DNA of 43,621 nucleotides, taken from the NCBI GenBank assembly GCA_964484905.1, contig CAZAGN010000006.1, positions 1 through 43,621 on the forward strand. The letters run 5' to 3'. Below the pieces are notes generated by a model that saw only the letters and a program-made list of their open reading frames with translations, searched no databases and was not told where the DNA came from. Shown piece by piece: positions 5,174 to 17,838 of this stretch (its first letter is position 1; each line of letters opens with the position of its first letter). The position numbers were made by a program, and so were the translations under genes. Source of the DNA: an uncultured bacterium. GTDB lineage: Bacteria; Cyanobacteriota; Cyanobacteriia; Thermostichales; PCC-7336.

Positions 5174-5605
5174 ATGAGCCGCTTACCCACAGTTGCAAAT
5201 AGCCACCGCAAAGCCTATCCTAGCGACCTGAGTGATGCGGAGCGGGAGCGAATCAAAGACCTCCTGCCCCAGCCCAAAGGCTTTGGCCATCCGGTAAGCG
5301 CCGACTTTCGTGAGATTCTCAATGATATTTTCTACGTGCAGCGAACAGGCTGTCAGTGGGAGATGATGCCCCATGACTTGCCGCCATACACAACGGTGTA
5401 TCACTACCTACGTAAATGGCAACGACAGGGAGTCTGGCAGCAGATGTACGCTCAGTTACGAAGCTCTGTACGGCAGCGTCAAGGTCGAGAAGCTGACGCC
5501 AGCGTGGCAATCCTTGACTCTCAGTCGGTGAAGACGACAGAAAAAAGGGGGAGGTTTACGGCTGTGACGGTGGCAAAAAAGTTAAAGGCCGTAAGCGGCA
5601 TGTAG
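5174..5605 (+). CDS. IS5-family transposase, OrfA (N-terminal part, upstream of the frameshift)
   Basis: YPSDLSDAERERIKDLLP...GRP-like...YVQRTGCQWEMMPHDLPPYTTVYHYLRKWQRQGVW is the typical IS5/DUF4096 N-terminal domain. ILDSQSVKTTEK carries the first DDE Asp. Confidence 0.85.
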   Translation: MSRLPTVANSHRKAYPSDLSDAERERIKDLLPQPKGFGHPVSADFREILNDIFYVQRTGCQWEMMPHDLPPYTTVYHYLRKWQRQGVWQQMYAQLRSSVRQRQGREADASVAILDSQSVKTTEKRGRFTAVTVAKKLKAVSGM

Positions 5606-5994
5606 TGGTCGATTCCCAAGGACTACTGCTAGGCGTATTCGTGAGTGAAGCGAATGCATCTGAACGTTTAGGTGCGGTTGTTCTGTTAGCTGAGCTAAAG
5701 CAGCAAGCCCAGTTGAGACGTGTGAAGGTTATTTGGGTTGACCAAGGCTACAGTGGCACTCGCTTCGCTGAGCAAGTGAGACAGATTTGTGGTGAGCACG
5801 TCCGTGTAAAGGTCATTCAGCGTCAATCGCCCGTATTTGAGCTCATGCACAAGCGATGGATTGTTGAGCGTACCTTTGGCTGGCTTAATCGGTTTCGGCG
5901 TTTGAGCAAAGACTATGAACTCTATCCCGAGACAAGTGAAGTGATGATTTATGGTGCTCTCTTTCACCTTCTCCTCAGACGACTCGCTCTTTAA
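5605..5994 (+). CDS. IS5-family transposase, OrfB (DDE catalytic part). Probably expressed as an OrfAB fusion by a -1 frameshift at the A6G run at 5541-5547.
   Basis: The -1 frame is open from 5518. It reads ...KKGEVYGCDGGKKVKGRKRHVVVDSQGLLL, which restores the conserved IS5 motif G(Y)D(G)GKKVKGRKRH. VWVDQGY and RWIVERTFGWLNRFRRLSKDYE supply the second Asp and the Glu. Confidence 0.85.
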   Translation: MVDSQGLLLGVFVSEANASERLGAVVLLAELKQQAQLRRVKVIWVDQGYSGTRFAEQVRQICGEHVRVKVIQRQSPVFELMHKRWIVERTFGWLNRFRRLSKDYELYPETSEVMIYGALFHLLLRRLAL

Positions 5995-6039: not shown

Positions 6040-6372
6040 TCAAACCAAGCCATTGAACCTGCCTAGGTCTTTGGCGTCTGCATACAGAGTCCAAGCCTCG
6101 GTACGGATGAATAGTCCTATCCCGTCTGTGGTGAACTGGGTTAACCCCGAGGGGGTTTCTACGATGTGTGTAGCTGGTATGGCTTCCAAAGCCTTGTGAA
6201 AGTAATCTGCTAGCAGTTTCTTGGGCACCCACAGATTCTTTCCTGTGGAGCTAATTGCATGTAAGTCGTCGGGGTAGTGGTTCACGGTTCTGAGTGCTTC
6301 ATTTTGATCGCCCTTGGGGTCGGGCAAAGTTCTAAACGAGAGCAGTAGCATTCCAAAATCAACAGGATTCAT
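6040..6372 (-). CDS. Hypothetical protein (110 aa). No family recognised.
   Basis: ORF only. It sits downstream of, and on the same strand as, 6436..6759, and its stop lies ~20 nt from the IS right end. Confidence 0.35.
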   Translation of the reverse strand: MNPVDFGMLLLSFRTLPDPKGDQNEALRTVNHYPDDLHAISSTGKNLWVPKKLLADYFHKALEAIPATHIVETPSGLTQFTTDGIGLFIRTEAWTLYADAKDLGRFNGLV

Positions 6373-7168: not shown

Positions 7169-7243
7169 TAGCGTAAACTTTTTAACGGTGTCAAGACATT
7201 AGCGTAAAAAATCTGCGATAGTGGATACATGTGTTTAGCGAAT
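7169..7243 (+). promoter_or_regulatory. Three direct copies of TAGCG(T)AA(A/T) just upstream of, and overlapping, the XRE gene start. Candidate operator set.
   Basis: TAGCGTAAA at 7169-7177 and 7200-7208. TAGCGAAT at 7236-7243. A TTGACT -35-like hexamer lies upstream (~7123). Confidence 0.4.
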
Positions 7244-7246
7244 CCC

Positions 7247-7447
7247 ATGAGCAAGATAGAGCAACTAAGGCAAAGCGCAGGACTTACACAGCGCCAGCTT
7301 GCTGACGCTGTGAACGTGACCGAGAGCACGATCAGGAACTGGGAGCATGATCGCAACGGCACCGTGATGGTCGAAAAGGTTTACCGACTTTGCAAGGCGC
7401 TTAACTGTTCCCTTGAGGATCTGGTGGCAGGGGAATCAGAGGACTGA
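7247..7447 (+). CDS. XRE-family (Cro/CI-type) helix-turn-helix transcriptional regulator
   Basis: MSKIEQLRQSAGLTQRQLADAVNVTESTIRNWEHDRNG...VYRLCKALNCSLEDLV is a textbook HTH_3 pattern. The track ORF starts at 7229, but the ATG at 7247 is more typical. Confidence 0.85.
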   Translation: MSKIEQLRQSAGLTQRQLADAVNVTESTIRNWEHDRNGTVMVEKVYRLCKALNCSLEDLVAGESED

Positions 7448-7708: not shown

Positions 7709-7891
7709 ATGCCGACTAAAGCGAAACACTTCCGCCGCCGCCGACCCCACTCAATTTATCTTTTAGATAGGCATTCAGCCGTACTCAGAAGCATTGCCGA
7801 CGAACGATCCATGTCTCTGTCGCAGACAGTTGAGACGCTTCTTTTGCCGTTCCTTGAGCGACAACCTGAGTATTTGGATCAGATCAAATAG
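7709..7891 (+). CDS. Small basic protein (60 aa), possibly a ribbon-helix-helix (CopG/Arc-like) DNA-binding protein
   Basis: A basic N-terminus (KAKHFRRRRPHSIYL) is followed by helices (HSAVLRSIADERSMSLSQTVETLLLPFLE), which fits a strand-helix-helix layout. It lies directly upstream of the primase-helicase. Confidence 0.5.
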   Translation: MPTKAKHFRRRRPHSIYLLDRHSAVLRSIADERSMSLSQTVETLLLPFLERQPEYLDQIK

Positions 7892-7968: not shown

Positions 7969-8200
7969 CAGTCTTCCGACTGGTTCCCCCCGTTATTAAG
8001 CAGAGGTCACTCTTTGAGTTTACATCAAAATCCTATAGCGTTTAAGGCACCCACCGCTGGGTTTACGCGATTCTCAAATTCCAAAGTTCCTACACCCATT
8101 TTTGACAGAGTGCCGTATGACTGTCGGAAATGCCCCAATGAAAAAGTCAGTCTTTGCAAGACGCAGTGCTTCGCTTGCCTTGATGTGGAGGGCAACGAAG

Positions 8201-10822
8201 ATGCTTAACCACATAAGCGTTTTGCCTGACCAATGGCCCCTTGTCGCCGTGCGTGACAAAGCCCCGTACATGGCCGGGTGGCAGCGTACCCCACTGAGTA
8301 AGTTTGAAGTTCTAAAGCAAGCCAAAAATGGCGCTGCTAACGGCGCTGGCATTCTGCTGGGTGGCGATTGGCTAGCGGTCGATATTGACGGCACTAGCGC
8401 TGCTTTGATGGCTGAAGCTTTATCGGGATTACCAATTGGTGAGGCGTTGCCAACAACTGTGCAATTCACCAGCGGCAAACCAGGGCGGTGTCAGCTTCTC
8501 TATCGTGTGCCCACTGAGTACCAGAACCGCATCACTGGCAGGGCATTTTTAACGGGTGCGACTGATGCGAGCGGCAAGCCCGAACAGTTAGATTTTCGCT
8601 ACACAGGCAAGCAATCGGTACTTGTCGGTGCTCATCCTGAAACGGGTTCATATCGCTGGTTACACAGCCCAGATACAACACCCGTGGCAGATTGCCCAGA
8701 GTGGATTTTGGATCTACTCAGTAAGCCGCACGCCATCGCTAACAGCGGCAACAGTGCCAGTGATCAGAGCGTGTCGTTAGAGGTGCTTAGCGAGGCGCTA
8801 GACGCCATTGATCCTGATTGCGACTACAACACATGGTTAGGCATTGGCATGTCTCTGTACGCCCTTCCAGATGAGGCGGGGTTTGATATGTGGGATCAGT
8901 GGTCTAGCCGTGGCAGCAAATATCGGCCAGGGGAGACGGTCGTTAAATGGGATTCATTCGCGGGTAAAGATAGCCGCCCAGAGGCAGTGATCGCGATCGC
9001 GAAAGATCGTTACGGGTGGGCGTTACCGAAACCAACACCAGTGGTTAAGACGGATGACGATGATCAATCGTTCGAGGTCCTTGATCACGGCTACGAGTAT
9101 CACGGCGATCTGCTGTGTGATGAGCTGAGAGCGCCTATCGAGCGGATAGCAGCAGGCTTTAACCAACCGCCGGTCATCGCCACAGCCGCACTACTCACGG
9201 TGGCTGCATCGTGTCTCAAGGTTGGCACCATGCTGGATATCGGCGGCTCTACCAATTGGAAAGTACCGCCGATTCTCTGGACGTGCGTTGTCGGTGAGTC
9301 AGGTAGTACGAAATCGCCCTACCTCGAAAAACTGGTGTCACCCCTGTATCAGTTGCAAACCTCTGATGATGCTGTCTATGAGGCCGCGAAAAAGCAGTAC
9401 AAAGCTGATCTAAAAGCCTATGAGGCAGCTAAAACCCGTAGCGGTTCGACAGACGATCTGCCAGATGAACCCACCAAACCGACTGCCACAGAGCGCTATG
9501 TGAGCGACTACACCCTGGAGGCACTGTCTCGGATCGTTGCAGAGCAACCGGAAAACGGGCTGCTGGTCTGGAACGATGAGCTAAAGCTGTTTTTTGCCTC
9601 AATGGATGCCTACAAAAAGCAGGGAGGTGGCGACCGCGCTCAGTGGCTAGGTTTACGCAACGGATCCGGTCTCAAACGGAACCGCAAGGGCGATGATCGT
9701 GTTTCTGTAGCTAGAACCGCTGTGAGCGTTCTAGGCGGCATTCAGCCCGAAGTGCTGGCGAAACTCATCAATGGCGATCGCGACGGGGCTGATGGACTTT
9801 ACCCGCGTTTCCTATGGCTGCGCATGGATGAATCTCGCCGAATGCCGCCGCTAAACGGTACACGCTGGGATGCCACAGAGCGATTCAGGTCGGTTTATGA
9901 GCGACTTAGCCGTCTAGAGCCTAGGGAATACCGCCTAAGCCCGCAGGCGTTTCGCACATTCAATGAATGGCATATGGAATGTGAGAGTGGCCGCATAGAG
10001 GCATCTAACGGGCTCATCAAGGCAACCATCTCTAAATACAAAGGGATGGCTGCCAGTGTTGCACTGATTCTGCATTGTCTGAACAGCGTCGCCAGTGGTG
10101 AGTCTGTGAGTGGAACCATCCCCGAAAGCACCATGATTCGGGCGATAGATTTCACGCGCTGGGCAGTCAATCAAGCTAAATCTCTATTTGCTGTGAATGC
10201 CATCACCACAGATAAGGAAACGGCTAGTATTCATAGACTCGTAAAGGAGTTTTCTGGCAAGGGCTGGATAAAGTCTAGAACGATACGGGATTTTCGGACT
10301 GAAAAGGGTAATAAAAAAATGTCTGCCCAAGAAACTAGAGACTTCATGCACTCTCTAGTTACAAGCGGCGTTGCCATAGATAACGACAAGTCGCCCAACG
10401 ATCCAAAGTACGAAATTCAGATTTTATCTAAAACTCAGTCCATTCAGTCCATAAATCCTGAACCGCAGTCACAGCAAGCGGTTGAGGATGGACTGAACCT
10501 CAGTCCATCCTCAGTCCACACTCAGTCCATAAGTGCTGAAGACCGACCCTTGGAAGAAAAGTGGACTGAACACGGACTGAGCATGGACTTAAACTCAGTC
10601 CACTCTGAAACGCAGTCACAGCAAGCGGTTGAAGAAAAGTGGACTGAATGGACTGAAAATCCGGAAGAATCTGATCGCTCCACTCCAGTGAATGAACCTC
10701 AACCAGACAACAGCGATTGTCATCCGAGTGTTGTTGCTACCGAGGTGATGCTAGATAAAGATGCTGCCGAACTTGCCGCTATGGCGATGTTTCTAGGAGA
10801 TTTGGCCGATGAGTTTAACTAA
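8201..10822 (+). CDS. Replication protein: bifunctional Prim-Pol (AEP) domain, PriCT-2 domain and DUF3987-type P-loop helicase, with an acidic repeat-containing C-terminal tail
   Basis: Prim-Pol: LPDQWPLVAVRDKAPYMAGWQ, LAVDIDG, DFRYTGKQSVLVGAHPETGSYRW. PriCT-2: YNTWLGIGMSLYALPDEAGFDMWDQWSSRGSKYRPGETVVKWDSF. Walker A: VVGESGSTKSP. The likely start is the ATG at 8201, preceded by GGAGGG. The track ORF begins at 8102. Confidence 0.85.
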   Translation: MLNHISVLPDQWPLVAVRDKAPYMAGWQRTPLSKFEVLKQAKNGAANGAGILLGGDWLAVDIDGTSAALMAEALSGLPIGEALPTTVQFTSGKPGRCQLLYRVPTEYQNRITGRAFLTGATDASGKPEQLDFRYTGKQSVLVGAHPETGSYRWLHSPDTTPVADCPEWILDLLSKPHAIANSGNSASDQSVSLEVLSEALDAIDPDCDYNTWLGIGMSLYALPDEAGFDMWDQWSSRGSKYRPGETVVKWDSFAGKDSRPEAVIAIAKDRYGWALPKPTPVVKTDDDDQSFEVLDHGYEYHGDLLCDELRAPIERIAAGFNQPPVIATAALLTVAASCLKVGTMLDIGGSTNWKVPPILWTCVVGESGSTKSPYLEKLVSPLYQLQTSDDAVYEAAKKQYKADLKAYEAAKTRSGSTDDLPDEPTKPTATERYVSDYTLEALSRIVAEQPENGLLVWNDELKLFFASMDAYKKQGGGDRAQWLGLRNGSGLKRNRKGDDRVSVARTAVSVLGGIQPEVLAKLINGDRDGADGLYPRFLWLRMDESRRMPPLNGTRWDATERFRSVYERLSRLEPREYRLSPQAFRTFNEWHMECESGRIEASNGLIKATISKYKGMAASVALILHCLNSVASGESVSGTIPESTMIRAIDFTRWAVNQAKSLFAVNAITTDKETASIHRLVKEFSGKGWIKSRTIRDFRTEKGNKKMSAQETRDFMHSLVTSGVAIDNDKSPNDPKYEIQILSKTQSIQSINPEPQSQQAVEDGLNLSPSSVHTQSISAEDRPLEEKWTEHGLSMDLNSVHSETQSQQAVEEKWTEWTENPEESDRSTPVNEPQPDNSDCHPSVVATEVMLDKDAAELAAMAMFLGDLADEFN
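10433..10657. repeat. Iteron-like array: 6 direct TCAGTCCA, 4 exact inverted TGGACTGA plus 2 degenerate copies, and a 22-nt direct repeat. All lie inside the 3' end of the primase-helicase ORF.
   Basis: TCAGTCCA at 10435, 10444, 10500, 10511, 10522, 10595. TGGACTGA at 10489, 10562, 10640, 10649. Degenerate copies: CGGACTGA at 10573 and TGGACTT at 10584. CGCAGTCACAGCAAGCGGTTGA at 10464-10485 and 10611-10632. Confidence 0.6.
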
Positions 10823-12740
10823 CTTGCGCTTCCTTGGTTGGGATTTTGAGACGATGCAGAAGGTCGCTAAAGTACACCGGATACCTATTGATTCATCGAT
10901 CAGAAATGATGAACATAAAGCAGCCCTAAAACGGTTACTAAGCTATCCACCTACGCCCCGTCATGGGATTACCCATAACGGTGATCGCTTAGAGGTGGAT
11001 TTAGACCGGCTAGATCTTGGCTATGTACCCATGGTGAAGCCGCCTATCTGGTCAGGTCAGATACCTGTGAAACCATGGGCTGAGGCTGAGAAAACTATCT
11101 GCTATATCGATATTGAAACCACAGGGCTAGAACCCAGCACCGACCGCGTGATCGCCGTCGGCATTCTCAGGAATGGGGAGTACAGGATTATTGCGGATGA
11201 CGATGAGCCTGCATTGCTGAGTGAGGCGATATCAGAGGTGTCTAAAGGGATTATCTGTGGTCACAACGTCTTTAAATTTGATCTGCCCTTTCTAATGACA
11301 CGGTGCAGCCTTCACCGAATCAAGCACTCATTCCGTAAGGCCAATAAAACCAAACTAATCACATCCAGCTCAATAAATGGGAAACCAATTGAGTACACAC
11401 CGATTTATGCCCGTGGCGTGGATGTTGTAGACACGCTGCACCAAGTCTCAATCTATGACAAGGCAGCGGCTAAGCTCTCTGGCTATGGCCTTAAAAACAG
11501 CGTGATCGAGCTGGGGTTGCGTGAGGATCGGCGGCTAGAGCTGTCGCCATCTGAGATCCGCGAGAGCTGGGAAAGTGGCAACACTGAACCCTTACACGAG
11601 TATCTACGGTACGACCTAGACGACACCCGCCTACTGGCTAACTACCTACTGCCAGTGGTGTGGCAACAACAGGCTTATGTACCAAATCTCAATTTCCAGA
11701 CCCTAGCGGTGGCCTCACCAGCGCTCAAGGCACAAATGATACACCAGTCTCTATCACTGCCTTATGCGGTCGCTGATGTGTCAATGAAATACACGGGCGG
11801 GGGCATCGCCTGTCATACACCTGGATTACACCGGAACCTAGCCAAGATTGATGTTTCAAGCCTTTACCCGTCGCTGATGCTGCGCTATGGCCTATGCAGC
11901 CGTAAAGACCCCGAAAACAAGTTTCTAGGGGTGTTGGCCTACATGGTTCAGGAACGCTTGCGGCTAAAGGCACTGGCTAAAGCTGGTGACACGGTAGCGG
12001 ATCAGCAGCAGGGAGCGCTGAAGATTCTGATCAATGGTTCCTATGGCTTCTTTGGCACGGGTTGCTATGCCTACAACGATTACGAATGCGCTGCCCTAGT
12101 GACCGCCTATGGGCGTAAGGTTCTCTCGGTAATGGAGCGGGTGATCGTGGATCAAGGTGGCGTGCTGGTCGAATCTGATACCGATGGGGTGATGTTTACG
12201 GCTGATGACGCTGAGGCCGTTACCAATGCAGTACAGGCCGCTCTACCGGATGGGATCAGCGTTGATCTTGAGTTCTCTGGGTGGTGTGGCTACGTTCCCA
12301 AGGCAAAAAACTATGTGCTTTTCTCGCGGGACAAAAAGCCCCATGTGAAGGGTTTGTACCGCAAGCGCAACCGCTGCCAGCTAGAACGCGAGTTTGCGAT
12401 TGGTTTCCTGCGACGGTGGTTTTTTGACTGCCAGAGGGGTGCAATGTCCTACTACACCCAAACAGTGAGCCGATTAGAGTCAGGTGATTACCCCTTGGCT
12501 GAGCTATCCATCACGCGGAAAATCGCAGCTAACGAAAAGAATCTATCGCATCTGGGAAACCCTGGCGATAAAGTGACCTACTGGGTTGGTTGTGATCGAG
12601 CTGGACGCAAACCCAAAGCCATTAAAACTAACGAGCATCCCTATTGGACTGATCACTATGTGGGCATCCTTGATGGCGTCTTAGGATCAATGGGAATTAC
12701 CCATGATCGCGAGCAACTCACCCTATTCGAGTGCGCTTGA
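10809..12740 (+). CDS. polB: Family B DNA polymerase (compact, 643 aa) with an intact 3'-5' exonuclease domain
   Basis: ExoI ICYIDIETTG. ExoII GHNVFKFDLPFL. ExoIII YLRYDLDDT. Motif A KIDVSSLYPSLM. Motif B KILINGSYGFFG. Motif C LVESDTDGV. KxY-like AKNYV, followed by VKGLYRKRN. An AGGAG lies 9 nt upstream. The start overlaps the primase-helicase stop by 14 nt. Confidence 0.9.
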   Translation: MSLTNLRFLGWDFETMQKVAKVHRIPIDSSIRNDEHKAALKRLLSYPPTPRHGITHNGDRLEVDLDRLDLGYVPMVKPPIWSGQIPVKPWAEAEKTICYIDIETTGLEPSTDRVIAVGILRNGEYRIIADDDEPALLSEAISEVSKGIICGHNVFKFDLPFLMTRCSLHRIKHSFRKANKTKLITSSSINGKPIEYTPIYARGVDVVDTLHQVSIYDKAAAKLSGYGLKNSVIELGLREDRRLELSPSEIRESWESGNTEPLHEYLRYDLDDTRLLANYLLPVVWQQQAYVPNLNFQTLAVASPALKAQMIHQSLSLPYAVADVSMKYTGGGIACHTPGLHRNLAKIDVSSLYPSLMLRYGLCSRKDPENKFLGVLAYMVQERLRLKALAKAGDTVADQQQGALKILINGSYGFFGTGCYAYNDYECAALVTAYGRKVLSVMERVIVDQGGVLVESDTDGVMFTADDAEAVTNAVQAALPDGISVDLEFSGWCGYVPKAKNYVLFSRDKKPHVKGLYRKRNRCQLEREFAIGFLRRWFFDCQRGAMSYYTQTVSRLESGDYPLAELSITRKIAANEKNLSHLGNPGDKVTYWVGCDRAGRKPKAIKTNEHPYWTDHYVGILDGVLGSMGITHDREQLTLFECA

Positions 12741-16263: not shown

Positions 16264-16581
16264 ATGTTTTCAAACGCAGAGTTTTGTTACTTACGCTGGA
16301 CACGTACCGGCACAATGCAATCCCAAGGGTTCTGTCGTAGCACCGTTACTGAGTGGATAACCCGGAGGGACGTGAAAGTGTCGCTATCGAGTCAAATCAA
16401 GGTCGCAAAGGCGTATGGCTACACCACCTTGGATGATTTTCTGGATGGTGAGGACTTGCCAGGTTCAAGCCGAACCAATCCAGTCAGAGCCTCAACAACC
16501 GCCCTGGTGCCAGAGCCTCAGTCGTCTGAGGACTTGATGTTGATGTCTGGTACAACCTTGGGGTTAACGGAACGGGCATAG
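16264..16581 (+). CDS. Possible small XRE-like HTH protein converging on the integrase (candidate recombination directionality factor or regulator)
   Basis: LRWTRTGTMQSQGFCRSTVTEWITRRDVKVSLSSQIKVAKAYGYTTLDDFL loosely follows an HTH_3 pattern. It overlaps the integrase 3' end by 64 nt on the opposite strand. Weak call. Confidence 0.3.
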   Translation: MFSNAEFCYLRWTRTGTMQSQGFCRSTVTEWITRRDVKVSLSSQIKVAKAYGYTTLDDFLDGEDLPGSSRTNPVRASTTALVPEPQSSEDLMLMSGTTLGLTERA

Positions 16582-17684
16582 TGCCTCAGCATCGTCTGGG
16601 TGCTATGGCCAAGCTGAGCCGCTAGGTCTACGGGTGCCATTGACTGAATGGCATGGGAGATGAGTGTGTGTCGTAACATCATCTGCGGTCTGTAAGGCAC
16701 CCCAGAAAGCTCCATAACCCTTACCCAGCAGTGTTTCATCAACGTTCTTTGGTGTAGTGGCTTGCCTGTCTTACCCTTGAAAACCAGATCATCAGGCTTG
16801 CCTCTATCCAGGCTTAATAACAGTTCAATCAGTGACTCTGAGCAGTAGAATACGCGAGATTGGTGAGTTTTACTACCCTTACGAATTTGTTCATGCGACT
16901 TTCCCACTACCATCGCAGAACGAAAGCGAATACTGCTGCAATCTGCTTCAATATCCCCCCAGCGCAAACCAATCCCCTCTGAGAGACGGCAACCCGTCAT
17001 AGCCAGAAATGAATAGAACGGCACGTAATAGGCATAGTGGCGACTCTCAGCCATTGTCTTGAATATCTGCTGTAGTTCGGCTTCTGTGAAGGGCTGGTAG
17101 GCATCCTCTGATCGCCCCTTGATCATGCGACGTAGCCCCGCAAACGGGTTTGGCTGACTCCAGTAGCCACACTCAATCATCCATCTATAAAATCCGTGGC
17201 AAACAGAAATTCGCTTACGAATCGTTTCTGGACCGTTGCCCCGATCTCTCAGGACACCAATTAAATCAATGGCATCCGAGCGGGTCATGATCGGATCTAG
17301 GGTCTTGAGAATGTTAACCAGCGACACATACATAGCGCTGATTGTCCGGGGGTTTGTTACCAGGGCGGACTTCTGGCGTAGGTACTCTGTCCAGTATTCA
17401 TCAAGGGGGAATGCTTCTGTCCTGCCAACGACGCCCCATTCACTCCAGTCAAAGGTGCCTGTAATGAGCTGAGCTGAGAGCTGTCTAGCGTCCCTCAATG
17501 CCTGTTTAACCGCAGGGGAGGTGTCAGGGATATGAAGATAAATCGTCTGCTGGTGCCGCCCCTTATATTCATCCCCCGGCTTGGGCGGTAGCGTGGCTCT
17601 CAATCGGAGATGGCCTGACCGTGACTCAATTCTGACTTTGGCGCGTTCGGTTTTAAGTTTCAAGTTTGCCTGTTCTACGTCCAT
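16518..17684 (-). CDS. int: Tyrosine recombinase / phage-type integrase with an N-terminal arm-binding-like domain
   Basis: TGCRLSEGIGLRWGDI (Arg I). MLRHTLISHAI (box II His/Arg). LGHSTQTMLRHYAR (His and catalytic Tyr). The N-terminus VRIESRSGHLRLRATLPPKPG resembles arm-type DNA-binding domains. Confidence 0.9.
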   Translation of the reverse strand: MDVEQANLKLKTERAKVRIESRSGHLRLRATLPPKPGDEYKGRHQQTIYLHIPDTSPAVKQALRDARQLSAQLITGTFDWSEWGVVGRTEAFPLDEYWTEYLRQKSALVTNPRTISAMYVSLVNILKTLDPIMTRSDAIDLIGVLRDRGNGPETIRKRISVCHGFYRWMIECGYWSQPNPFAGLRRMIKGRSEDAYQPFTEAELQQIFKTMAESRHYAYYVPFYSFLAMTGCRLSEGIGLRWGDIEADCSSIRFRSAMVVGKSHEQIRKGSKTHQSRVFYCSESLIELLLSLDRGKPDDLVFKGKTGKPLHQRTLMKHCWVRVMELSGVPYRPQMMLRHTLISHAIQSMAPVDLAAQLGHSTQTMLRHYARSVNPKVVPDINIKSSDD

Positions 17685-17838
17685 GTCCTAACTATGTCCT
17701 AGCTATGTGAGACTAACCTTACACAACTGGGGTTATCTGAGCACAACTGAGCTATAGTTTCGGTAGAGCAGGACAGGGGTTAAAGCCTTGTGGGACGTGA
17801 ATTAAGGGCTGTTAATCGTTAGGGACGTATCGGACATT

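Follow-up and report, generated by a model that had tools for sequence, protein, structure and literature searches.

The closest characterised system to the locus described here is the Rep-ori module of the SaPIs (Rep1, Rep2 and PriRep5 of Staphylococcus aureus islands). Our locus lies in a stretch of 43,621 bases from an uncultured cyanobacterium (contig CAZAGN010000006.1 of assembly GCA_964484905.1; hereafter the window), where an integrated element of roughly 12 kb sits in the chromosome. The 3′ part of the element's primase-helicase gene holds a dense array of 8-bp sites, which we read, at a probability of about 0.7, as an iteron-type origin bound by the putative winged-helix domain (wH) of the same protein. 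In the SaPIs, the C-terminal winged-helix domain of Rep or PriRep binds 6–12 short iterons that adjoin rep; at least two of them on each side are oppositely oriented, and two hexamers have been proposed to load themselves there (PMC9371898). Both the SaPIs and the window element are integrated mobile elements with a primase fused or adjacent to a hexameric helicase that ends in a winged helix, predicted in our case, and both have short, element-specific sites at the 3′ side of rep with opposed pairs on each side. SaPI Rep2 belongs to superfamily 6 (SF6), the superfamily to which DUF3987 proteins have been assigned (PMC9371898, PMC4889955). Cryogenic electron microscopy structures have been reported for PriRep5 and Rep1 (PMC9371898), whereas for the window protein no sequence similarity to a solved structure, and with it no homology to the SaPI Rep proteins, was detected. 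SaPI iterons are 5–6 nucleotides (nt) long, lie downstream of the open reading frame (ORF) and flank an AT-rich centre; the window sites, in contrast, are 8 nt long, lie inside the ORF, are translated and surround a centre of 50% A+T. Unlike the SaPIs, the window element encodes its own family-B DNA polymerase (PolB) and has a cyanobacterial host.

The iterons of the lambda ori lie inside gene O, in the part that encodes an interdomain linker, and among lambdoid phages the iteron sequence and the DNA-binding domain of O differ together. The window resembles lambda in that its sites fall within the coding sequence of the presumed initiator, in a linker-encoding segment; the ORF stays open through the array here and in 19 related loci. 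Lambda O, a small initiator, carries its DNA-binding domain at the N terminus and recruits host DnaB via P; the lambda origin consists of four direct 19-bp iterons and an AT-rich region. In our locus, unlike lambda, the initiator would be the primase-helicase itself, its DNA-binding domain precedes the sites, and the sites are mirror-symmetric 8-mers.

The domain order primase-helicase-wH is shared with phage P4 alpha, the RepA proteins of N15 and PY54, and ORF904 of pRN1, in which the same polypeptide recognises the origin, as we propose here. In N15 and PY54, the 3′ part of repA is reported to contain the origin. Plasmid pRN1 requires 166 bp located just downstream of orf904 (PMC4234260). 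P4 alpha differs from the window protein in its Toprim-type primase and superfamily 3 (SF3) helicase, with ori and crr away from the gene, and ORF904 in being SF3 with a downstream stem-loop region as its origin; none of these proteins is homologous to the DUF3987 core. The closest parallel for exact mirror symmetry is provided by SV40 and the papillomaviruses, where short inverted sets of sites (large T antigen pentanucleotides and E1 sites) go with two hexamers arranged head-to-head. These are eukaryotic viruses, however, with another origin-binding fold, another helicase superfamily and non-coding origins.

Mirror-symmetric sites within the primase-helicase gene

A first-pass annotation of the window had pointed to a cluster of one repeated 8-mer near the end of the primase-helicase gene and had proposed an origin nested there. 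Reading of the region and pattern searches showed all its site coordinates to be correct. The exact word, TCAGTCCA or its complement TGGACTGA, occurs 11 times on the two strands of the window, and 10 of these copies fall within 222 bp (Table 1); the only other one is at 12645 on the minus strand. Shuffles of the window that preserve dinucleotides led us to expect 1.23 copies (standard deviation 1.29, maximum 6) and none of 100 reached 11, so that the clustering is, as claimed, far beyond chance. Two additional copies in the array carry one mismatch (CGGACTGA at 10573 and TGGACTTA at 10584), while outside it the number of one-mismatch copies agrees with chance (35 found, about 32 expected).

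The 12 sites form six exact mirror pairs: in 6 of 6, the start of the plus-strand site and the end of its partner sum to 21091. Successive gaps between sites are 9, 45, 11, 11, 11, 40, 11, 11, 11, 45 and 9. When gaps and orientations were shuffled, six mirror pairs were reached in 24 of 200,000 trials (p ~1e-4), and random placement of sites gave at most four. The outer pairs face inward, leaving at least two opposed sites per side, and the sites at 10489 and 10500 together make a 19-bp palindrome. A 22-nt direct repeat noted earlier (10464–10485 and 10611–10632) was confirmed and can be lengthened to 31 nt, over which the copies are 94% identical; as its copies are direct and not mirrored, the array gains polarity.

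The array lies inside ORF 8102–10822, 153–374 nt upstream of the polB ATG (10809), where the first-pass annotation had placed it, and 166–387 nt before the primase-helicase stop codon. Its view that simple in-frame expansion of a peptide repeat would not by itself yield such an array was borne out as well. Copies of the word fall in each of the three ORF phases, in either orientation, and encode the unrelated peptides QS, SV, LSP, WTE and GL, so the repeat is a feature of the DNA rather than of the peptide.

Pfam recognised Prim-Pol (1.7e-19), PriCT_2 (1.7e-15) and DUF3987 (3.3e-57) domains in the primase-helicase, and a database protein of 873 amino acids (P0001) points to 8201 as the start. 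Proteins with DUF3987 are SF6 (MCM-like) replicative helicases that have a winged helix-turn-helix at the C terminus (PMC4889955), and a PriCT-DUF3987 protein has been shown to unwind DNA (PMC11724360). The helicase class given here rests on this literature, because phmmer and a 13-sequence profile searched against the PDB matched no chain at E up to 10. About 75 residues ending in KYEIQIL align with a conserved domain of relatives, and Pfam gave only sub-threshold matches of wH type for this pre-array domain. For the 101 amino acids before the array, AlphaFold2 predicted a winged-helix topology with a mean confidence score (pLDDT) of 69 from a four-sequence alignment. The top Foldseek matches were mostly winged-helix DNA binders (MarR, Fur/PerR, MecI/BlaI, an ORC winged helix and STIV F93), with probabilities of 0.9–1.0 but E-values of 0.02 or worse.

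The array is translated as a Ser/Gln/Glu/Pro-rich low-complexity linker, probably disordered, which runs from the wH to the acidic tail and contains the repeated peptides QSQQAVE and EEKWTE. The tails of unfused relatives are also acidic and aromatic (DDEWN, EDDGY, EEDF, GEW), and other relatives are fused to PolB at this point. Taken together, the helicase-PolB fusions, the 14-nt gene overlap and the ends of the unfused relatives suggest that the acidic tail contacts PolB, with the array-encoded linker as a tether. In a natural variant of 153 amino acids (P0128), the wH (…SSKYQIKI) is joined straight to the tail domain (GDYAKAGD…DDEWN), and the array-encoded linker that the relatives L001 and L014 have is entirely absent. 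The variant could stem from a decaying element that has lost its origin, or from recombination.

Table 1 Features of the array, the genes around it and the element (window coordinates; asterisks mark sites with one mismatch)
Feature	Coordinates	Strand	Remarks
Iteron array (putative)	10435–10656		12 copies of TCAGTCCA/TGGACTGA, of which 10 are exact and 2 have one mismatch; all fall into 6 exact mirror pairs centred on 10545.5; exact on plus strand at 10435, 10444, 10500, 10511, 10522, 10595; exact on minus strand (reading TGGACTGA) at 10489, 10562, 10640, 10649
Left outer pair	10435–10451	+	Direct sites 10435 and 10444, 9 bp apart
Left inner block	10489–10529		Inverted site 10489, then direct sites 10500, 10511, 10522 at 11-bp spacing
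Right inner block	10562–10602		Minus sites 10562, 10573*, 10584* at 11-bp spacing, then plus site 10595; mirror of left inner block
Right outer pair	10640–10656	−	Sites 10640 and 10649, 9 bp apart, opposite orientation; mirrors left outer pair
Direct repeat, copy 1	10458–10488	+	31 nt; core is the 22-mer; starts with CTGAACC
Direct repeat, copy 2	10605–10635	+	31 nt, 94% identical to copy 1
AT-rich left flank	10405–10434		77% A+T; sole markedly AT-rich stretch beside the array
Primase-helicase gene	8102–10822	+	Prim-Pol, PriCT_2, DUF3987, wH, linker, tail
Winged-helix coding region	10214–10423	+	H1-b1-H2-H3-b2-b3 (predicted); ends in conserved KYEIQIL just before first site
C-terminal tail	10657–10819	+	55 residues after the array; acidic/aromatic end …DLADEFN
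PolB gene	10809–12740	+	Family-B DNA polymerase, 643 amino acids; start overlaps primase-helicase stop by 14 nt
XRE-type helix-turn-helix gene	7229–7447		Upstream of primase-helicase gene
Putative ribbon-helix-helix protein	7709–7891		Small ORF upstream of primase-helicase gene
Tyrosine integrase	16518–17684	−

Arrays and winged helices in related elements

Direct searches for protein homologues were shallow (six matches for the primase-helicase, three for a wH profile), and a scan of viral contigs with the primase-helicase found no match. Relatives were gathered via a PolB alignment, which gave 47 loci from cyanobacterial genomes. An unbiased scan for the most clustered 8-mer of each locus placed a cluster 400–800 nt upstream of the PolB match in 17 of the 47. 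With these 17 mapped arrays, one found later in L003 and a marginal candidate in L013, arrays are present in 19 of 47 loci. The upstream gene is homologous to the window's helicase in 16 of the 19, and every locus with such a gene has an array. All 19 arrays are in frame, lying in the 3′ part of the helicase gene or, where helicase and PolB are naturally fused, in the linker, and all begin just after the end of the wH, 'KY.I.IL'. Helicase, wH and linker are fused to PolB in a single ORF in L007, L009, L011, L016 and L036, and in proteins P0092 and P0124.

Most arrays follow one layout, in which a left pair of direct sites and a right pair of inverted sites, each with 9-bp spacing, enclose alternating −/+ pairs; the left outer pair is the most conserved architectural feature. 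L001 mirrors only 8 of its 11 sites, and L011 has mostly direct repeats. The words themselves are TAGTCACA in L001 and L002, TAGTGACA in L006 and L014, TAGTAACA in L004, L044 and L010, GTAGTCCA in L009, TGCCCGCA-like in L034 and L003, TGGTGCAA in L007 and L011, ATCGTCAG in L005 and ATGACACA in L045; the remaining array loci carry other words. Homologous elements keep the position, the copy number and the orientation pattern of the sites, while the 8-mer and hence the peptide differ. L003 and L006 are two contigs of one Chamaesiphon metagenome-assembled genome (JTS-AC30) and carry T(G/A)CCCCCA-like and TAGTGACA words, respectively; two words in one bin would be in line with a word that sets replicon compatibility. 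Scans of sequence collections for TCAGTCCANTCAGTCCA gave about 160 loci, and at none of them is a relative of the primase-helicase encoded. They were mostly unrelated 9-bp tandem repeats, and at the protein level only PolB was matched, twice and weakly.

In 9 of 18 loci with differing iterons, a second motif, C(T/C)GAA(A/C)N, follows the left outer pair at a constant distance; this motif is not element-specific. It follows the pair by 6–7 nt in L001, L002, L004, L006, L009, L012, L034 and L044. In the window it is found at 10458–10464 and 10605–10611, opening both copies of the 31-nt repeat. The motif may serve a host factor or priming, or may reflect no more than conservation of a Pro-Glu-Thr peptide.

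When sister arrays were compared without gaps, sites proved far more conserved than spacers. For L001 and L002, site identity is 100% against 82% for spacers (p 8e-7); for L006 and L014, 99% against 70% (p 3e-11); and for L004 and L044, 100% against 89% (p 3e-4). L001 and L006 have the same site spacing, but one base (C to G) sets all copies of one array apart from those of the other, and the spacers are only 48% identical. The first-pass annotation had named a kept peptide over a drifting DNA motif as the pattern that would speak against iterons; we observed the opposite, with sites outlasting spacers.

The word also varies together with the wH. Helicase identity dips to 0.30–0.53 in the helix-turn-helix of the wH only between elements with different words, whereas elements sharing a word have helix-turn-helix identities of 0.73–0.83. 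L001 has its nearest helicase core in L006 (distance 0.19) but agrees with L002 in its helix-turn-helix and its sites; between L006 and L014, which have a word in common, the core distance is 0.45 and the helix-turn-helix distance 0.03. By these alignments, the helicase proteins of the PolB-linked relatives are mosaic. Mantel tests over 14 loci gave a correlation between site and helix-turn-helix distance (r 0.46, p 0.005) that persisted when the helicase core was controlled for (partial r 0.39, p 0.008), while site and core distance given the helix-turn-helix were uncorrelated (partial r 0.00). Comparison across loci shows, then, that the sites are selected at the DNA level, that their position and layout are conserved, and that the word is element-specific and covaries with the helix-turn-helix.

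The protein family is not confined to integrated elements. With tblastn it was found on at least 92 plasmid records, nearly all cyanobacterial, where it is annotated only as 'DUF3987 domain-containing protein' and often lies beside parM or parG. We inspected 10 plasmids for arrays. Six have a plasmid-specific array inside the coding sequence right after the wH, with the words TTAGGGAT, AGTTGACA, GCCGACA (twice), TGTAGACA and GTAGACAA. In two, the array is in a mid-gene linker instead: L055 (3474–3561) and L058 (3490–3628) have a plasmid-specific 8-mer cluster about 1 kb into the DUF3987 coding sequence, between the primase and helicase parts. Of the other two, one has 33-bp tandem repeats and one, with a shorter protein, has no array. 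Planktothrix plasmid p4 has seven plus sites followed by six minus sites, making six exact mirror pairs as in the window. On a 21.9-kb Microcoleus plasmid (L053), all 8 exact copies of the word lie in one array, which is the replicon's top 8-mer cluster.

Plasmid pMIC7113.05 (L052) has a separate repeat array besides the one in rep, near a gene annotated 'AAA family ATPase (chromosome segregation)'. This array, of 14–16 copies of ACAAGTCA at about 8369–8800, overlaps a hypothetical-protein coding sequence (8156–8701) beside the ATPase gene (8664–9452), and is likely a centromere. The same plasmid has a dense array of GAGGGCGC at about 36269, inside a NACHT NTPase gene.

A candidate origin weighed against other roles

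In the mechanism that we propose, the wH would read the 8-bp sites encoded just downstream in its own gene. The mirrored sites, with inward outer pairs and 11-bp-phased inner triplets, would then direct two helicase rings to assemble in opposite orientations, a step modelled on the SaPIs. The rings would open the duplex so that bidirectional synthesis could start, with Prim-Pol as the priming enzyme and the co-translated PolB extending the primers. An origin would be tolerable inside the ORF because what is encoded there is a linker of low complexity, which joins the wH to the acidic tail (or, in some relatives, to PolB). We infer wH binding, double-ring loading and origin firing. The first-pass proposal of DNA-level iterons and an origin nested in the initiator gene is supported by the conserved layout, the constraint on the sites, the covariation with the wH and the arrays on plasmids.

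Several observations weigh against an iteron-type origin. The centre of symmetry has no clear AT-rich unwinding element, although the AT-rich left flank is a possible one. Confidence in the wH model is moderate, given its pLDDT and the four sequences behind it, and the Foldseek E-values are poor. The collection scans found no orthologue with the same TCAGTCCA word, so that purifying selection was measured in sister lineages and not on the window array itself. As the wH region adjoins the array, co-inheritance of the two could in part be linkage rather than co-adaptation. Two plasmids of Nostoc sp. CENA543, pCENA543c (L050) and pCENA543a (L059), have near-identical Rep C-terminal regions and the same GCCGACA arrays, which fits awkwardly with iteron-mediated incompatibility. 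GC skew, which the first-pass annotation had suggested as a check, was uninformative: the window profile has no turning point near 10.5 kb, and on two complete plasmids the arrays are not where skew reaches its extremes. This evidence is weak, since the replicons are small and skew follows gene orientation.

The array might instead be a control locus bound by the wH, acting through titration, handcuffing, incompatibility or a roadblock to read-through into polB, with the true origin elsewhere. Known iteron replicons employ extra iteron clusters for copy control, everything that points to specific recognition fits this explanation equally well, and the lack of an AT-rich unwinding element at the centre would be accounted for. 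We nevertheless consider it unlikely. The array is the word's only cluster in the window, and likewise in L053, leaving no second array to serve as the origin, and the conserved mirror layout with inward outer pairs would be needed for double-ring loading but not for titration. It is distinctly improbable that the array is a centromere-like or operator array for the XRE-type or the putative ribbon-helix-helix protein, serving partition or repression of polB. Ribbon-helix-helix centromeres of ParR or omega type typically have arrays of short repeats in both orientations, and small helix-turn-helix genes lie upstream of rep in the window and on several plasmids. However, the window's element yielded no gene of ParA or ParM type, pMIC7113.05 has its distinct array beside a segregation-type ATPase in addition to the one in rep, the site sequence covaries with the wH of Rep, and the array always abuts the wH coding region, whatever its neighbours. 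As for an operator, polB overlaps the upstream stop codon, and the sole promoter-like match nearby is downstream of its ATG and at chance frequency.

The mirrored sites can also form a long imperfect hairpin or cruciform, which could serve as a single-stranded initiation or priming site for Prim-Pol or control translation of polB from the mRNA. Folded as single-stranded DNA, 10417–10674 reaches −56.5 kcal/mol against a shuffle mean of −27.5 (z −7.5), and sub-threshold Rfam matches to long-hairpin microRNA precursors of plants fall in the array (10485–10606, minus strand; MIR862 at 33 bits and MIR5565 at 28 bits, with gathering thresholds of 100 and 80). These matches are an artefact of the hairpin, and with nothing else found a known RNA family was rejected. 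Pairing in the arms comes almost entirely from the sites (46 of 48 positions), mirrored non-site positions being only 38% complementary. A hairpin needs no single word per arm, yet all 12 sites share one; the incomplete mirroring in L001 and the mostly direct repeats of L011 fit it poorly, and the lineage-wide change of one base between TAGTCACA (L001/L002) and TAGTGACA (L006/L014) is better explained by a shared protein reader. We hold a hairpin function to be hardly probable. The repeats could also be seen as mere traces of slippage or duplication within a low-complexity linker, or as a selected peptide repeat, with no role of the DNA in cis; the translation of the region and its Ser/Gln/Glu-rich composition with recurring QSQQAVE and EEKWTE would speak for this. 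The explanation is effectively refuted by the unrelated peptides from three frames and both orientations, by the conservation of sites over spacers, and by the relatives, which keep the layout while changing the word and so the peptide.

Two other candidates were set aside. Arm-type sites of an attP do not fit an array that is intact in the middle of the element and far from the integrase gene, and an internal promoter or terminator for polB was discarded because the array has no promoter-like site and matches are at chance level.

Beyond the iteron-type origin itself, the relatives allow a more general reading, to which we give slightly less than even odds: that these loci represent a widespread and undescribed cyanobacterial 'one-gene replicon', a Prim-Pol/DUF3987 (MCM-like) helicase with its origin inside the coding sequence of the disordered linker after the wH. 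Exact mirror sites would set two helicase rings head-to-head. The wH and iteron segment would form a swappable specificity cassette, the concerted change from TAGTCACA to TAGTGACA separating lineages, and the linker would tether the acidic tail or a fused PolB, coupling origin recognition with polymerase recruitment.

The principle is well known from SaPI, lambda, P4 and N15, and in that sense the finding is unsurprising; what is distinctive is the combination of a translated candidate origin, exact mirror symmetry, an SF6/DUF3987 helicase and a linked or fused PolB. The literature we searched holds no description of these arrays or of this Rep-ori arrangement, and gives mapped origins of cyanobacterial plasmids and mobile elements only for other Rep families. 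Work on CyRepA concerns one such family, and the CyRepA plasmid replication proteins were rejected as relatives since their domains differ (DUF3854 plus DEXDc). The present family spans plasmids and integrated PolB-carrying elements across the cyanobacterial phylum, and a simple sequence rule, the densest 8-mer cluster immediately after the winged helix of a DUF3987 gene, would predict its origins. If the reading is true, compact Rep-plus-ori cassettes, possibly in mutually compatible or orthogonal sets, would become available for cyanobacterial vectors. The natural series that pairs single-base iteron changes with helix-turn-helix changes would lend itself to the study of how initiator specificity evolves, and the locus plainly illustrates how cis-acting and coding sequence can share the same DNA.

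The mobile element and its surroundings

Ordinary chromosomal genes flank the element, with chemotaxis-type regulators on the left and DJ-1/PfpI and NAD kinase genes on the right. No Par NTPase of ParA or ParM type was found among the element's ORFs. Its PolB matches ordinary PolB models and archaeal B-family structures. Motif C of the polymerase reads SDTDG, and its clade is large, mostly metagenomic and cyanobacterial (462 matches, E up to 1e-5). A cyanobacterial and algal PolB_SITDG group in which the first Asp is replaced has been described (Kazlauskas et al. 2020).

The HIP1 octamer GCGATCGC occurs 16 times in the window. Copies at 8993, 9774, 14132 and 14324 are inside the element, some of them within the primase-helicase gene, which suggests that the element has long been resident in genomes of cyanobacteria. 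A direct repeat of 11 bp, AAAGCCTTGTG, at 6188–6198 and 17782–17792 flanks a segment of 11.6 kb, with the right copy about 100 bp past the integrase gene. The two copies, the sole att candidate, are a possible att pair, but about 0.2 such matches are expected by chance. The window contains no tRNA gene. At or just outside the left edge of the element is an insertion sequence of the IS4/IS5 family (5174–5994), whose transposase is split over abutting ORFs for a DUF4096 (5174–5605) and a DDE domain (5605–5994), consistent with programmed frameshifting.

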